DNA from: Eledone cirrhosa
Taxonomy: Eukaryota
Assembly: GCA_964016885.1 (NCBI GenBank)
Contig: OZ024743.1
Location: 259,780,001 to 259,844,000 of the forward strand
Length of the DNA stretch: 64,000 nt
Reading direction: 5' to 3'
The position numbers and the translations under genes were made by a program. Position 1 is the first letter of the stretch. Each line of letters starts with the position of its first letter. The notes under the pieces were generated by a model. That model did no database searches. It saw nothing but the letters and a program-made list of their open reading frames with translations, and had not been told where the DNA came from. Of the stretch, positions 3,481 through 63,069 are shown piece after piece.

Positions 3481-6400
3481 TTACAGACACATACTCAGAG
3501 TAGGCCCATTCACTCGGGCCATTCTTGCATCTCTCACCCATCTTTCAACAAAATGCTGGGAAGAAAACACTTCCCTTTCTACCCTGACTTTCCTTTTCAA
3601 ATGAAATTTGAAAAAGTTAATCAGGGCATCACCGAAGAGGTAAGTGCTCGTCTTCAGCCCTTTCAAACGTGTCCACCAAACTATCTCTTTCGCCATGGCC
3701 ACCAAACAGATAAAAACTGCCTGCCCTTCGCGGCTAAAGGAAGAGGGCGGGGCAATCCTCACGATGGACTCAGATGATAGCTGGATCCGTCCCACACGTG
3801 ACAGCAGGTTTTCGACATAAACCCACAAGTCAGGAATGCTCGGACACTGGACGAGAGGCGTGCAGGACGGTTTCCTCGCCTTGCGCGCATCTCCGACATG
3901 CCCGGCTGACGGCACCTCCATGCCTGTAGAGTTTATCCCGAACTGGCAAAGCTCCTCGGTAGCACTGCCAGGCCAAGGATTTCTGGAAGTTGTCCATAGG
4001 TCCCGGCCCGAAAGTTCTTCCGAAGAGATTGGCTAGTTGATTTTCGTCGACGCCTAGAGTTTCCCCAAGTACGTCGTCGCTCATTCCCTCCACTAATCCT
4101 CTATAGAACGCCAAGGTGGAGTTTCCATCGATCACATTGCCCGATTGGTCGAGGACTGTGAGCGCCTGAACATTCCAGTCTCCAAGCGCTCCCTCTCGGT
4201 CTTCGCTTGACCCAGGACTGCAGCTCCGTCAAGGAGACGAGCTGGGGAAAGACGCGTCTAGCAAACGGCGACCACACCTGATCACCGTCGAGGAAGAGGT
4301 GGAGATGTAGCCTGAGCGCGTGTCTGCGCATCATCTGCCACGGCATACTCAGCCCTCCACGTAGCGGGTTTTGACAGCAGATGGACTTCCTGACCATAGG
4401 AGCGCGTCCCTTCCACAAAAAAAAGAAAGAGCAAACGCTCCAGTGCAGTCAGGCGAGGCTTAGGACAAGGCACGACGGTCAGGCGGTAGTAGATGACGGA
4501 CGCGATATATGCCACCTCCGCTCGACCTTTCAGAGATAGCTTCCTCTCCGCCCATTTCTGGGTGAGAGAAGCCACCCTGCACGTCACCTCGTCCCAGTTT
4601 TTGTCAGTCTGGAGGTCCGGACCGAACCAGACCCCTAGCAATTTAACCGGTCCCTCCGTCCAGCGCCCGATGACGCTGTTGGACAGCATGGTCCTACCTC
4701 TCCAGGTGCTGAGCTGCAGGCCCAACGACTTTTCCTGGTTGATCATTGGTCCTGTCAGCGCTTCGCATTCTCTTAGTCTAGTGCCGATCGCCTCGATGTG
4801 TTTGGCGATCGACACCACTACGGTGACATCGTCCGCATATGCTGACACGGATCTTCCGCATCCTAGTTCGCGTGGGACCCTCCTCGACGACTCCAGTTTG
4901 TGCAGTAATGGTTCGAGAGTCATTTTGTACGAGAGGGACGAAAGGGGAGATCCTTGGCGGACCGAGCGCATGATGTTGAATGGTTCCGAAAGGTGACCGA
5001 TGACTCTCACGACAGAGCAGATGTCGCTGTGCTTGGCAGCGATCCAGTCTCTGAAGACGGGCCCAAAGCCAGCCGCCTTCAGGACTGCCGCTAGATAATG
5101 ATGGTCGACTCTATCGAAATCTTTCGACTGATCTAAATTGATCAAGGACCCACCCGTGCCAGATTCCCTAGCTACCATCTCCACGATGTATCGCATGAGG
5201 TGGAAGTTGTCGTGGATGGATCTGTCGGCAATGGTGCATGTCTGCGCCTCTCCCACCAGACCACCAACGACAAGCGCCAACCTCTTTGCTAGCACCTTGG
5301 CCAAAAATCTTGAACTCTGTGTTTAGCAGATTTATGGGCCTGAAATTATCTATATTATCCCCCTTGTTCGGATACTTTACCTGCAGCGCCACCGCTCCTC
5401 AGCTCACAGAGCTGGCAATTCTCCCGTTCCTTTGCCAGTTGCAGTAAATGTCCGCCAAGAGGCCTCCGAACAGTCTGGCATCTGTACGTTAAGTTCATAG
5501 GGCAGACCATCCAAACCAGGTGATTTACCCCTTGTTTAGCCAGTCATTGCCTCCCGTACTTCAGCTGATGTTATCGGTTTTCCGCACCACTCCGCCTCAG
5601 TGGCTGAGAGCCGCAGCAGTCAGTCGAAATAAACACTAAAGTCCATCCCTCCATCCGGCCCGCCGCTGCCCCCGAACAGCTGAGCGAAATGTCGCTGAAC
5701 AGCTTCACACATTTGCCCGGGATCGAGTAGCATGCGCCCGTCGTGGTCCACCAAATACCGGATTGTGGCTTTGTTGCTACGACGCGCCTCCGCCACTCCG
5801 GCCCATTGAACGGCTTTCGTCCCCTCGTGTCTGAGAGCACGCACCCTAGCTCTGACAACGCAGCCTTCGTGCTTTGCATTGAAGAATTGGTAAAGGGCCA
5901 ATTTCGCCGCAAGTACGTCGGTCGCGATGCCTTTGCTAAGCGCCTCGTCTAATTTTCTAACTAGTTCTCCCTCTGCTCTATTTTTCTCTATTGCTAAAGC
6001 CTTACTAAACCTAATGGACTCTATTCTAATCGCTCATTTCAGAGCAAACCCCCACTTGTTGTTGTCGATGGCCCCCGTCAACGCCCGCTCAACTAGTTCG
6101 CTAATCCGGTCTCTATAGGACTTGCGGCCTGGTAATGACGCGTTTACCTTCCAGTAGCCAGGTCCTTGTCTATGAAGCCTATCTAAGTCAACCACACAGA
6201 TCACGAATTTGTGGTCCGTGTAGCTGACTATTTTGAATTGTGGACAGCCTATGCTAGACCTATCTATTTCCCTACAAAATGCTCTATGTAGATATGATCT
6301 GGATGACCCGATTCGGTTTGTCCAAGTCCACATTGGCACATTCGGGAAATCCAATCGGTACCTGTCAGACAGTTCAAAACGCCTGAGCAGGTTGGTGAGG

Positions 6401-17927: not shown

Positions 17928-17956
<29 letters not shown>

Positions 17957-17962
<6 letters not shown>

Positions 17963-18512
17963 GGATATACGTTCCTTCACGCACAAGGCGCCAAGGTACG
18001 CATGTATTGTCCAACCAAATGCCAGTGTGGTTCAATGGCGGGTTAATAAATTAACGAGCCAGAACAAATATAAACAAGGTTTAGCAAATAATGAAAAAGT
18101 TTCAAAATAAATTTTAAAAAAATTGACTTTACCTACTATAGTTACCTTTACCTCCACTAATGTTGAGAACAAAATTGGTCGTTCCGACTGCTGCTAGCAA
18201 TAGCTGTGGCTAGTTTGACCTACCTCCTTTTGCCTCTATCTTTGCTACGGCCCTTGATAAACCTGTTTCTTCATCCACTCTCATCCCAGGAACAGTTTTG
18301 ATAGCGCTAGTTTGTGATTTAAATTCAGGAATTTTATATTCTTTGAATGAAAAGAACCTTCTGACGAGAATCTTTCTTTGCAACGAAGGCCGTATGGTCT
18401 CCGTTTTATTTTTGGGATTCGAAACCGATCGGTAAAGGTAACTATAGTAGGTAAAGTCAATTTTTTTAAAATTTATTTTGAAACTTTTTCATTATTTTCT
18501 AAACCTTGTTTA
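17957..18512. mobile_element. HHR-bearing non-coding retroelement (483-nt family), 5'-inverted insertion in (TA)n
   Basis: 17957-18152 is the reverse complement of about 50887-51080; 18150-18512 matches about 51090-51450. Confidence 0.85.
18356..18439 (+). ncRNA. Type I hammerhead ribozyme
   Basis: ACCTT-CTGACGA-GAATCT..GGATTC-GAAA-CCGATCGG-TA-AAGGT: complete core, stems I, II and III pair, GUA cleavage after 18434. Confidence 0.88.
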
Positions 18513-18700
18513 TATATATATATATATAGAGAGAGAGGATAACAATATATCGTTAAAGGTGATCCGATAAGAGGTTGTGAAAACTACTTATTATGTATAG
18601 TTTAAGCGTACGGTGCTGTGTGACTCAACAAGAGGTTTACGTGGATGACGAGTTTATGACTTCACTTGTATTCCTATGTAAATATATCTTGGAGTAATAA

Positions 18701-19057
18701 AATTGAAAAAGTGAAGAATGATATGATCAACAGTACAAACAAGGAAATTTATTTACAGTCTAACAATTGTTTCTATGATAGAGTTGTCTAAAAATTGCTA
18801 AACACTGAAATTAGTGGTACTCAATTTAAAATACATGGTACCTCCATCATCTCATCAGAAATATTAAAATACATGCTACCTCCATCATTTCATCAGTTTC
18901 TGATGAAATGATGAAGGTAGCATGTATTTTAAATTGAGTGCCACTAACTTCAGTGTTTAGAAATTTTTAGACAACTCTATCATAGAAACAATTGTTAGAC
19001 TGTAAATAAATTTCCTTGTTTGTACTGTTGACCATGTTATTCTTCACTTTTTCAATT
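18701..19057. repeat. Long inverted repeat (axis about 18898) ending in (TA)n
   Basis: 18701-18896 versus 18900-19057 are reverse complements; a short tandem duplication (about 38-bp period) lies next to the axis in the left arm. Confidence 0.9.
18894..19002 (+). ncRNA. Type I hammerhead ribozyme with long stem II (antisense copy at 18756-18861)
   Basis: CAGTTT-CTGATGA-aATGAT..ATCATa-GAAA-CAATTG-TT-AGACTG; GUU site; mismatch at the base of stem II. Confidence 0.7.
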
Positions 19058-19125
19058 ATATATATATATATATAGTGAAACATAAGTGAATTTCTGTCTT
19101 GGTACAGTAAGATTTATTTGAAAAA

Positions 19126-32414: not shown

Positions 32415-33160
32415 ATGAAAGAAAACACTTTTTTCGCTCTACATGGCTGAATACAATAAATGTATTCTGAGTTTTTCGAATATTAATAATTGTTTCTACT
32501 TAAGGCACAAGGACAGCAATGCCCAGTACATTACTGATACTTTATTTTATCGACCCCGTAAGGATGAAAGGCAAAGTCAACCTCGGCGGGATTAGAACTC
32601 AGATCGTAAAGGGACGTAACTATGCTGGAAAGCATGGCGTCCGACACTCTACCGATACTGCCAATCCACTCGAATATTAATAACATTCGATTCGTTTGCA
32701 ATTATGCAAACAAGCCTCAATTTTATAGCCATGTCAGTAGAATAAACCCTTCATTCTTTCTCTTGTGTTGGCATGTGAACAGAATTGCAGACACTAATGA
32801 TTCTGTGTATCACCGTACATCAGTACAGCTCATTGTTCAACTGCCAAACTATCAGAGCTAGTGAAAACATATGCTAGTTTCAAAAATACACAGTGACTGA
32901 TTGGCCTGATTTGCATATTAGCAGACTGACAGTTTGCCAGGTGAATAGTGAGCTGTACTAATGAAGTGTGATACCCAGAAACATTAGTTTCTGCAATTCT
33001 GTTCACATGTCAACACAAGAGAAAGAATGAAGGGTTCATTCTACTTACATGGCTATAAAATTGAGGCTTGTTTGCATAATTGCAAACGAATCGAAGGTTA
33101 TTATTAATATTCGTTAAACTCATTTATTGTATTCAGCCATGTAGAGCGAAAAAAGTTTTC

Positions 33161-35334: not shown

Positions 35335-36320
35335 CCAACGCCACTGAGGTCTCAGTAGAGAGGTCATTGCATCACAACATAAGCTCAGGCCACAGTAGAG
35401 TGGTCATGTCATTACATCACAACATCAGCCGAGGTCACAGTAAAGAGGTCATGAGGTCACATCATTACATCACAACATCAGTTGAGGTTTCAGTAATGAG
35501 GTCAGGTCATTACACCACGTCATCAGCTCAGGTCACTGTAGAGAGGCCAGTAGGTATTTACACAACATTAGCTGAGGTCACAGTAGAAAGGTCATGTCAT
35601 TACATGACAACATCCACTGAGGTCACAGTAGAAAATTTAGGTCATTACATCACAACATAAGCTAAGTTCTCAGTAGTGACGTCAGGTCATTACATCACAT
35701 CAGCTGAGGTCACAGTAGAGCGGTCAGGTCATTACATCACATCAGCTGAGGTCACAGTAGAGTGATCAGATCGTTACACCACATCATCAGCTGAGGTCAC
35801 ACTAGAGAGGTCATGTCATTACACCACAACATCATCTGAAATCGCAGTAGGAAGTTTGGGTCATTATATCGCAACATAAGCTAAGGTCTCAGTAGTGACG
35901 TCAGATCATTACATCACAACATCAGCATAGGTCACAATAGAGAGGTCAAGTCAGGTCATTACATCACGACATCAGCTGAAGTCCCAGTAGAGAGGTTAGG
36001 TCATTGCATCACAACATCAGGTGAGGTCACACTAGAGAGGTCAGGTCATTACATGATAACATCAACTCAGGTCACAGTAGAGAGAGGTCAGTAGGTATTT
36101 ACAACACATTAGCTGAGGTCACAGTCGAGAGGTCAGGAGTTAATTACATTACAGCGTCAACTGAGGTCACAGTAGAGAGGTCAGGAGTTAATTACATTAC
36201 AACATCAACTGAAGTCACAGTAGAGAGGTCAAGAGGTCATTACACAAAAATGTAGAGAGATCATGAGCTCATAACACCAAAACAGCAGCTGATATCTTCG
36301 TTGATAGATCAGGTCATTAG
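35335..36320. repeat. Minisatellite, about 42-48 bp unit (CATCACAACATCAGCTGAGGTCACAGTAGAGAGGTCAGGTCATTA), about 21 copies
   Basis: Contiguous imperfect tandem units with no unique spacers. Confidence 0.93.
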
Positions 36321-36770: not shown

Positions 36771-36883
<113 letters not shown>

Positions 36884-37044
36884 AATTGGTGCTCTGAAAT
36901 AGCGATATATATATGAATGTATATATAGTGTATTTTGCAATACACTGTATGCTTAATTAAAAGCATTTTGAAGACCTTACGCTATTGTTTTAGAGTAGTG
37001 ACAGTTTCACTTACTTTAAATTTTCAGCAAACAGGGGGAGATAA

Positions 37045-37089
37045 AGCTGACAGAGCTCTGTTTCGTACTATTTGGTACTTATCAAAGCT
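37045..37089 (-). ncRNA. Type I hammerhead ribozyme, U3-A8 core
   Basis: Minus strand AGCT-TTGATAA-GTAC caaata GTAC-GAAA-CAGAGCTCTG-TC-AGCT; stem I extends past an internal loop (CAGGTGGAG / CTCCCCCTG). Confidence 0.88.
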
Positions 37090-37318
37090 AAGTACTCCAC
37101 CTGCCTGCTGAAAATCATGAATGTTTGATTCTTATAGAATTCTAGTAATAATCAGGAACTGATTATACATTCATATATATATCGCTATTTCAGAGCACCA
37201 ATTCTAATTTTCAATTTCTGCATGACCGGCAACCGCTCTATATAATCAGTTCCTCATTATTACTAGAATTCTATAAGAATCAAACATTCATGATTTTCAG
37301 CAGACAGGTGGAGTACTT

Positions 37319-37363
37319 AGCTTTGATAAGTACCAAATAGTATGAAACAGAGCTCTGTCAGCT
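37319..37363 (+). ncRNA. Type I hammerhead ribozyme, U3-A8 core (other arm)
   Basis: AGCT-TTGATAA-GTAC caaata GTAT-GAAA-CAGAGCTCTG-TC-AGCT; GUC cleavage after 37359. Confidence 0.85.
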
Positions 37364-37476
37364 TTATCTCCCCCTGTTTGCTGAAAATTTAAAGTAAGTG
37401 AGACTGTCACTACTCTAAAATAATAGCCTAAGGTCTTCAAATGCTTTTAATTAAGCATACAGTGTATTGCAAAATA

Positions 37477-37545
<69 letters not shown>

Positions 37546-42162: not shown

Positions 42163-42215
<53 letters not shown>

Positions 42216-42353
42216 AGAAAGTGAGGTTTTTTTTACAAATTGAAAAATAACCGAGGTGTCCTACACGAGTGAAAGTATAAAGAAAAAGAGATGAAATCGA
42301 AAATGCAACTGGAGTCTTATTTTTTTTTTTAAATATATATATTTATTTGGTTC

Positions 42354-42394
42354 CTTTACCGGTTTCGCAGTTCAGTTCTTCTGCTTTTCAAAAG
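42354..42394 (-). ncRNA. Minimal type I hammerhead ribozyme, U3-A8 core
   Basis: Minus strand CTT-TTGAAAA-GCAG aagaactgaa CTGC-GAAA-CCGG-TA-AAG, in a short insert between (TA)n tracts. Confidence 0.72.
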
Positions 42395-42434
42395 TACAGT
42401 TGAGATGGAGGGTCTGTGGTTTTATACTATATAT

Positions 42435-45546: not shown

Positions 45547-46289
45547 AATATCCGTCATCAGTGGTCTACTAGCCATCATAGGTATTTCTTCGCATTACAG
45601 ACCATATACCTCAAGCTAGGGCGATACAATAACTAAATTAAGTTATTGGGATAAAAAGAGTTGGCTGGAGAAAGAGAGACAGATAAACAGACACGAATGA
45701 TGAGGCAACGTGAAGAGAGGAAAACATGAGAAAATCAAGTCAATAATTCATTTTGAACATAAGAACTTGCAAACATTGACGAGAAGGCAAATATACATTT
45801 TGGCCGTACGGATATGAGCGAAGAAAGAATCTCGTACGGTGTGGGACGATGGAGGAAGTGAGAGAGAGGGTGAGTAGCAGAGAGTGAGTGAGTGAAAGTG
45901 TGAGGAAGTAGCTAGTCGAGAGAGGGTGACTAGCAGAGCGGGTGAGTGAAAGTAAGAGGGAGAAGGAGAGAGAAGGGGGAGATAGAAAGAGGATAGCGGT
46001 AAGGGAAGAGAAAAAGACAGGTCACAGCGAAGGGGAAAGCATATATGAATGAAAAATGGCGAGCTGTGTTGTTGCAAATAGAAAATGAATTATTGACTTG
46101 ATTTTCTCATTTCTTCCTCTCTTTACGTTGCCTCACCATTCGTGTTTGTTTACCTGTCTCGCTTTCTCCACCCAACTCTTTTTATCCCAATAACTTAATT
46201 TAGTTATTGTATCGCCCTAGCTTGAGGTATATGGTCTGTAATGCGAAGAAATACCTATGATGGCTAGTAGACCACTGATGACGGATATT
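45547..46289. repeat. Inverted-repeat element (arms 45547-45754 and 46082-46289, GA-rich spacer); diverged relatives at about 710-900 and 53455-53600
   Basis: About 208-bp arms are reverse complements; both end just past a CTGATGA; flanked by TA-rich microsatellites. Confidence 0.85.
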
Positions 46290-50490: not shown

Positions 50491-50812
50491 ACTTCCTTAT
50501 ATGGGAAGATTGTAGTTGTTGAGAGGATTGGTCAAAATTTGTTGTAAACACAAATAAGTCTATCGTGGCATTTGGTGGGAGGTAGGGGTGGCTGAACTTG
50601 CCTGTAGAACAATGAGGGAGGGAGTGGAGCCGGTCAAGCGTTGAAAGTGAAATCTATACAGCAGATTCTAAGGATAGTGCCTTTCCTTTCATTTCAGATA
50701 AAGAATCTTGCTAAACAAATTCAGAAACGAAATATATATATATATATATATATATATGTGCCAATGTGGTTCAATGGCAGGTTAATAAATATATATTCTT
50801 CGAATGAAAAGA

Positions 50813-50895
50813 ACCTTCTGACGAGAATCTTTCTTTGCAACGAAGGCCGTATGGTCTCCGTTTAATTTTGGGATTCGAAACCGATCGGTAAAGGT
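50813..50895 (+). ncRNA. Type I hammerhead ribozyme (tandem copy 1)
   Basis: ACCTT-CTGACGA-GAATCT..GGATTC-GAAA-CCGATCGG-TA-AAGGT. Confidence 0.88.
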
Positions 50896-51295
50896 AACTA
50901 TAGTAGGTAAAGTCAATTTTTTAAAATTTATTTTGAAACTTTTTCATTATTTGCTAAACCTTGTGTATATATGTTCTGGCTCGTTAATTTATTAACCTGC
51001 CATTGAACCACATTTGCATTTGGTTGGACAATACATGCGTCCCTTAGCGCCTTGTGCGTGAAGGAACACATATCCTATTATTACTACTCTCCTCTACTGT
51101 TGAGACAAATTGGGTCGTTCCGACTGCTGCTAGTGATAGTTGCGGCCGGTTTGACCTACCTCCCTCTGCCTCTATCTTTACTTCGGCCCTTGAAAAAATT
51201 GTTTCTACATCATTCACTCTCATCCCAGGAACAGTTTTAGATAGCGCTAGTTCGTAATTTAAATTCAAGAATTTTATATTCTTCGAATGAATAGA

Positions 51296-51378
51296 ACCTT
51301 CTGACGAGAATCTTTCTTTGCAACGAAGGCCGTATGGTCTCCGTTTATTTTTGAGATTCGAAACCGATCGGTAAAGGT
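51296..51378 (+). ncRNA. Type I hammerhead ribozyme (tandem copy 2)
   Basis: Same motif; stem II is GAATCT/AGATTC, so a U-G pair becomes U-A and pairing is kept. Confidence 0.88.
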
Positions 51379-51445
51379 AACTATAGTAGGTAAAGTCAAT
51401 TTTTTTTAATTTATTTTGAAACTTTTTCATTATTTGCTAAACCTT

Positions 51446-51491
<46 letters not shown>

Positions 51492-51672: not shown

Positions 51673-52075
<403 letters not shown>

Positions 52076-62352: not shown

Positions 62353-63069
62353 ATTATTTTCTCATCCTTCCGGGATGGGCGGTGGATTGGCAGTATCGGT
62401 AGAGGGTCAGACACCATGCTTTCCAGCATAGTTACGTCCCTTTACGATCTGAGTTCAAATCCCGCCGAGGTTGACTTTGCCTTTCATCCTTACGAGGTCG
62501 ATAAAATAAAGTACCAGTAATGCACTGGAATAATTGATGGCCTTGTGCCAAAAGTAGAAACAATTATTTTCTCATCCTTCCGGTGAATTGGCAGTATCGG
62601 TAGAGGGTTGGATGCCATGCTTTGATGCATAGAGTTACGGCCCTTGCCATTCTGAGTTCAAATCCCGCCGAGGTTAACTTTGCCTTTCATCCTTACGGGG
62701 TCGATAAAATAAAGTACCAGTAATGCACTGGGTAATTGCTGGCCTTGTGCCAAAAGTAGAAACAATTATTTTCTCATCCTTCCGGTGTCGATAGAATAAA
62801 GTACCAGTAATGCATTGGGTAATTGCTGGCCTTGTGCCAAAAGTAGAAACAATTATTTTCTCTTGTGGCGGTCGATTAGCAGTATCGGTAGAGGGTCGGA
62901 CGCCATGCTTTGACGCATAGAGTTACGGCCCTTGCAATTCTGAGTTCAAATCCCGTCGAGGTTAACTTTGCTTTTCATCCTTACGGGGTCGATAAAATAA
63001 ATTACCAGTAATACACTGGGTAATTGCTGGCCTTGTGCCAAAAGTAGAAACAATTATTTTCTCTTGTGG
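62353..63069 (+). mobile_element. Head-to-tail array of four SINE family A copies with nested target-site duplications
   Basis: SINEs at 62377-62562, 62581-62764, 62773-62851 (partial) and 62867-63052; ATTATTTTCTC at 62353, 62563, 62765, 62852 and 63053. Confidence 0.92.

Follow-up and report, generated by a model that had tools for sequence, protein, structure and literature searches.

We found that an inverted element in the 64,000-nt stretch of Eledone cirrhosa DNA analysed here (the window) is an ordinary two-armed insertion within its family, a new family of non-LTR retrozymes that carries the integration signature of Penelope-like elements (PLEs). The single copy was probably made when a Neptune-type PLE primed cDNAs from two fixed start sites of the retrozyme, ~80 and ~190 nt downstream of the predicted hammerhead cleavage site, inside a (TA)n microsatellite and joined the two arms through 4 nt of microhomology. 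Unit positions are given relative to a 483-nt reference unit at 50891–51373 in the window, with +1 as the first base 3′ of the cut. On this numbering the flagged copy reads antisense from unit 191 to 1, then sense from ~195 to 483 and on through 1–80, flanked by (TA)n. Its features, and the other copy of the family in the window, are as follows.

17928–17959, no strand: left (TA)n target microsatellite
17957–18148, minus strand: left arm, unit 191 to 1, 95% identity to the reference unit
18149–18152, no strand: inner junction, 4-nt microhomology common to both arms
18153–18512, plus strand: right arm, ~unit 199–483 followed by 1–78, ending at the first fixed start site (~+76 to +80)
18356–18439, plus strand: type I hammerhead motif, based on a motif scan and on folding copy B's homologous motif under constraints
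18511–18528, no strand: right (TA)n target microsatellite
50759–51455, plus strand: copy B, the second family copy in the window, containing the reference unit 50891–51373

Alignment to the reference unit bore out the two-armed geometry proposed by the first-pass annotation, with 90% identity over 18152–18434 (unit 199–483) and 96% over 18435–18517 (unit 1–82) in addition to the 95% of the left arm, which starts at the second fixed start site of the family (~+190 from the cut); both outer ends do merge into (TA)n, as had been noted. The left arm had also been described as stopping within a few nucleotides of the ribozyme cut. It does end close to the cut, but its exact end is ambiguous between −4 and +1, because the junction bases TACC are at once the antisense of cut positions −4 to −1 and the sense of ~unit 195–198. 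All 15 other occurrences of the right-arm seed (overlapping loci not merged) read TACC at ~unit 195–198, so these letters are normal for the right arm in this subfamily and the junction is a 4-nt microhomology with no gap. A contig from the sequencing runs has a loose end at 18149, agreeing with the junction position, and none of the contigs of four sequencing runs of unknown kind spans the flagged locus. Copy B combines a short inverted arm (unit 128 to 97, from a minor start site) with a sense arm that runs from ~385 through one full unit to +80.

The right arm carries an intact hammerhead, as claimed earlier, with stem I, a CUGACGA core (at 18361), a long stem II, GAAA and a 3-bp palindromic stem III, and with a predicted cut after GUA at 18434; the core numbering and the cut rule follow the conventions of this ribozyme family. 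The hammerhead fold is predicted at −23.5 kcal/mol, against −25.6 kcal/mol for the best fold, and Rfam at its gathering score returned 0 matches in the window. Genome-wide, the 27-mer spanning the uncut site is present in 1170 exact copies, so the structure is not a product of chance, and the 18-mer just 3′ of the cut in 1341. Exact patterns detected at least 574 ends entering (TA)n at ~+80 and at least 174 at ~+190 in this 3.0-Gb genome, which is rich in TA microsatellites. Units measure 483–485 nt, number from 1 to ~10 per arm and differ within arrays by 0–1.3 bases on average (8 arrays). The only frame of at least 120 codons was an antisense one of 130 codons, stop to stop, in copy B; the flagged copy has none. 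The unit thus shows the retrozyme features examined, namely a type I hammerhead in each unit, a short dispersed tandem organization and no protein-coding capacity and, with no reverse transcriptase (RT) or GIY-YIG frame of its own, acts like a passenger of PLEs rather than an autonomous PLE. A search for conserved stem-loops ahead of the start sites led to a hairpin predicted at ~unit 11–67, which changed on both sides in only 1 of 51 pairs, giving it no covariation support.

These properties match those that the available text of two sources (PMC7229834; bioRxiv 10.64898/2026.07.22.740005) gives for animal non-LTR retrozymes: short units in tandem, each with a single type I hammerhead, no long coding frame, dispersal as monomers to multimers and a proposed dependence on PLEs. 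Animal retrozymes are reported there as linear, multimeric and circular RNA (PMC7229834), and have been proposed to be non-autonomous PLE derivatives on the grounds of distribution and phylogeny (bioRxiv 10.64898/2026.07.22.740005). For known retrozymes, the parts of these sources that are accessible thus link the two by co-occurrence and phylogeny and leave insertion junctions undescribed, whereas the present family displays two fixed start sites and head-to-head arms. A search of openly accessible papers and preprints found no paper on retrozyme insertion junctions.

We sampled insertions by one outer end alone, taking 90 of 100 listed +80 ends and 90 of 100 listed +190 ends; after removal of 2 loci without a usable anchor and 6 duplicates, 172 independent insertions remained. 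Of these, 108 have two head-to-head arms, 55 have a single arm, 7 contain a same-strand break (excluded from end counts) and 2 run off the locus. Both outer ends can be seen in 105 of the two-armed insertions; 98 of them combine arms from the +80 and +190 sites, one has two +80 arms and six used other sites, so the outer ends of the flagged copy are standard family start sites rather than specific to one event. The second outer end fell at 184–197 in 98/105, and the second start site, seen as a tail of ~110 nt, was present at one end only in 98/105. Anchor ends had been selected for TA. Among the other ends, a TA repeat adjoins the partner outer end in 97/105 two-armed insertions, upholding the earlier proposal of priming from both target strands at AT-rich sites of the element, and the 5′ flank is TA-rich in 38/55 one-armed insertions. 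That TA-like microhomology alone picks the start is not supported, as the unit's remaining TA-like stretches seldom serve as starts. That two separate insertions, or a later rearrangement, came to lie back to back in one microsatellite is extremely improbable given the strict 80/190 pairing with 63% of insertions two-armed, the absence of a TA spacer at most junctions and the rare variants common to both arms, even though (TA)n runs are hit repeatedly and two loci (L072 and L140) each hold two separate insertions.

The first-pass annotation had read the inversion as the twin-priming signature of L1, in which the mRNA being copied is primed again at an internal site, yielding an inversion with an internal deletion (PMC2837659, available text). 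The retrozyme insertions resemble L1 twin priming, and the dual priming postulated in the same source, in that two cDNAs of opposite orientation appear to start one from each target strand and to meet at an internal junction. For the most part the L1 reading does not hold. Twin priming has a second primer at a variable RNA site and fragments that do not overlap, the first cDNA stopping at or before that primer, whereas each retrozyme start is a fixed site and overlap between arms is unrestricted: only 4 of the 98 +80/+190 pairs have a +80 arm that stops 15 nt or less from site 190 (3.2 expected), and both arms cross a cut site in 41/98. The layout is closer to dual priming, which the available text of PMC2837659 only postulates.

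The lengths of the arms bear on the template. At least one cut site is read through in 184/264 arms, arm lengths in +80/+190 pairs are uncorrelated (rho −0.02) and the summed arm length exceeds 483 in 65/98 pairs. Since arms copied from a template cut at both ends could not exceed 80 and 190 nt, the usual template would be a circle or an uncut multimer. Ends do not accumulate at the points where a polymerase would run into the opposite primer (2 vs 6.3 and 4 vs 2.6).

Inner ends, which favour A/T-rich positions, are scattered over the whole unit in the 172-insertion sample. The first-pass annotation had expected breakpoints to peak at the cleavage site rather than spread uniformly, and a peak is present: 14 of 269 inner ends lie at −7 to +1 of the predicted cut against 5.6 expected from the arms at risk, with P = 0.002 for this pre-named window and 0.09 after correction for scanning all windows. 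The excess is 2.5-fold overall and 5-fold in +190 arms, where 9 of 102 inner ends in two-armed insertions fall in the window (1.7 expected, P = 8e-5) and the first cut site alone accounts for 7 ends (2.5 expected, P = 0.013). Base composition does not remove it (adjusted expectation 5.5). A second cluster, mostly of +80 arms, lies at unit 289–296 (window ~51179–51186; 9 vs 2.9 expected), where the sequence is GC-rich and, in the predicted circular fold, pairs close to the ribozyme. A genome-wide pattern for ends at −7 to +6 gave 53 matches, 51 of which we examined, setting aside 10 internal duplications or lesions and retaining 41 true ends; the resulting ~41–43 true ends compare with ~29–30, judged by eye from 34 matches, in a control window of like design, AT-rich and placed 20 nt upstream, whose denominator in the sample is similar (191 vs 187). 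A GC-rich control window gave, as a raw count, 8 true ends of 15 matches. The excess near the cut is real but modest and broad, and is not a stop at +1.

These counts bear on whether the template was what the first-pass annotation took it to be, an RNA beginning at the hammerhead cut. In its full form, one linear RNA starting at the cut would be primed twice, the +190 cDNA running off the 5′-OH end and the +80 cDNA stopping at the +190 primer. The flagged copy fits such a scheme, and one independent insertion, L208, repeats its full geometry where ~0.2 are expected under independence (an estimate from marginals); the fivefold excess of near-cut ends in +190 arms points the same way. Genome-wide, 31 near-cut ends reach +1 or further (33 counted by script, corrected by hand by removing L085 and one L279 row, with the flagged copy moved to the compatible group), and once microhomology is given to the partner arm 13 of them are compatible with an end at or just after +1 and one needs −1. 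Against it, the other 17 must extend 2 nt or more past the cut and just 3 ends appear to stop exactly at +1, the scan-corrected P and the similar peak at 289–296 weaken the case for a special position, as does the sizeable count in the AT-rich control, and the partners of near-cut +190 arms end at ~190 in only 1/10. Moreover, the 4-nt shared junction of the flagged copy is simplest if the cDNA went 4 nt past the cut; the shared junction letters favour a join of the L208 type. With 95% of inner ends elsewhere and the read-through noted above, we consider a linear template cut at the hammerhead unlikely, and the near-cut end of the flagged copy most likely reflects joining by microhomology within a region where inner ends are slightly favoured. 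Where +190 arms stop near the hammerhead core, synthesis may have stalled there or a minority of templates may have been cleaved; run-off from cleaved RNA could account for a few percent of these +190 arms. At the cut site itself, four loci (L108, L109, L279 and L280) contain short tandem duplications of unit 1–19 bounded by repeated GGTAAAG, which are likely template slips.

Junctions between arms (n = 108) comprised 55 with microhomology, 20 blunt and 33 with inserted bases. Rare variants were common to both arms in 21 of 52 testable insertions; in 34/52 no other copy was closer than the partner arm, and in 18/52 some other copy was. Together with the low divergence within arrays, the shared variants fit one template, or two copies from one source. 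They would also be produced by fold-back or self-priming, proposed for PLE inversions in the available text of PMC3846280, in which a single target-primed cDNA is extended into its own fold-back copy. Palindrome-like junctions (14/98 vs 5 expected) hint at some fold-back or hairpin-guided joins, and 48/98 pairs are geometrically compatible with such copying; the remaining 50/98 are geometrically impossible as fold-back copies, and a fold-back copy would not end at a second fixed site as 98/105 do. These two counts exclude fold-back as a general route, and we regard it as very unlikely to have produced the flagged copy.

A candidate mobiliser is present in the same genome. GIY-YIG domains are many (150 scored of 10596 first-look candidates), and we compared the unit with 50 GIY-YIG loci out of those 10596. 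One autonomous element (L311), with a PLE protein of 938 codons, encodes RT, a CX4CxxC motif and GIY-YIG, and was assigned to the Neptune type by its linker motif alone. Its terminal repeat holds a hammerhead-like motif with a U3/A8 core variant and shares with the retrozyme the junction CGGTA^AAGG across the cut. Its first end lies at +76 (retrozyme +75/76) with a similar TTTATA ending, its second at ~+143, and all three two-armed copies seen (L316, L319 and L321) pair the two ends; a second PLE family has a like layout with other distances. The retrozyme unit and the Neptune-type terminal repeat share no primary-sequence homology (539 of 1000 shuffles score as well), and direct comparison with the 50 GIY-YIG loci returned short or TA-driven matches only, so we infer the partnership from geometry. 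Hammerhead-like motifs with U3/A8 in place of C3/G8 are predicted in PLEs at L311 (1423 and 6402), L291, L304, L317 and L324, and in one PLE family GCAA appears to replace GAAA. Within the window, a minus-strand fragment of the L311 terminal repeat (42208–42421) has the U3/A8 hammerhead-like motif and ends in (TA)n at the second site, and an inverted-arm insertion adjoining copy B (51676–51970), with a degenerate hammerhead-like motif and (TA)n at +115, resembles by eye the terminal repeat that flanks a GIY-YIG gene of L296.

An inverted 5′-truncated copy and a 30–40 bp tail at one end are standard features of PLEs (available text of PMC8557442 and PMC3846280). As in those PLE insertions, including the Neptune clade, the retrozyme has a head-to-head inverted 5′-truncated arm and an extension at one end only, targets microsatellites, carries a hammerhead upstream of its 3′ ends and joins by microhomology. 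It differs in being a non-coding tandem unit rather than an RT–endonuclease gene, and in a tail of ~110 nt rather than 30–40, which by our count sits on the opposite arm in 98/105. The Poseidon PAc protein, as far as the accessible text of PMC11167929 describes, cleaves and extends both strands in vitro from two internal RNA start sites, with hammerhead cleavage dispensable. The retrozyme likewise has two internal start sites downstream of the hammerhead, AT-rich targets and both strands extended; in the same text PAc showed no strand difference in start site, whereas the two retrozyme sites are almost always on opposite strands.

In the dual-priming mechanism that we favour, a Neptune-type Penelope-like protein would nick both target strands, one cDNA would be primed from each fixed site (~+80 and ~+190) on RNA that is likely circular or an uncut multimer, and the two 5′-truncated cDNAs would then join through 4-nt microhomology. 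Several observations run against it: it does not predict the near-cut excess of +190 arms, for which a further cause has to be sought, and the pairing implies a strand difference in start site of which the available in vitro results in PMC11167929 give no sign. The lack of homology to the PLE terminal repeat, the surplus of palindrome-like junctions and the 18/52 insertions with a closer copy elsewhere also count against it. More specifically, a Neptune RT dimer might copy a circular retrozyme RNA by rolling circle, its subunits starting at different fixed sites on opposite strands; this version is possible, though we lean against it. If true, it would explain the one-sided tail and head-to-head inversion of PLEs as true dual priming and prove, from the junctions themselves, the mobilisation of retrozymes by PLEs; a few percent of +190 arms would then be traces of run-off at 5′ ends made by the ribozyme. 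The available text of PMC8557442, PMC11167929 and bioRxiv 10.64898/2026.07.22.740005 states the mechanism of tandem and inverted PLE insertions and the mobilisation of retrozymes by PLEs as open. In this young, abundant family the junctions can be counted: start sites are used on opposite strands, arms read across the ribozyme site, and an autonomous element matches. Dual priming and retrozyme mobilisation become testable because the two start sites nearly always pair on opposite strands, as they do in that element, and the retrozyme itself is small and well defined enough to serve as an in vitro substrate.

Four further head-to-head inverted-arm elements of other families lie in the window, mostly beside (TA)n (18697–19061, 32675–33106, 36877–37480 and 45547–46289), the third having a hammerhead-like motif and a one-sided extension. 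Elsewhere in the genome, hammerhead-bearing repeats at L312 (7510–8419), L289 (near 3190), L316 (533) and L324 (7462), one of them a tandem of ~460 nt, are by their motifs further putative retrozyme-like families. The window also contains a reverse-transcriptase frame on the minus strand (4282–5319; RVT_1, E = 7.6e-18) and a weak zf-RVT match on the plus strand (2187–2849), both probably LINE remnants, the former left unconnected with the retrozyme family, and tandem repeats at 62380–63063 (periods 87–288 nt) and 35361–36244 (periods 45–140 nt).
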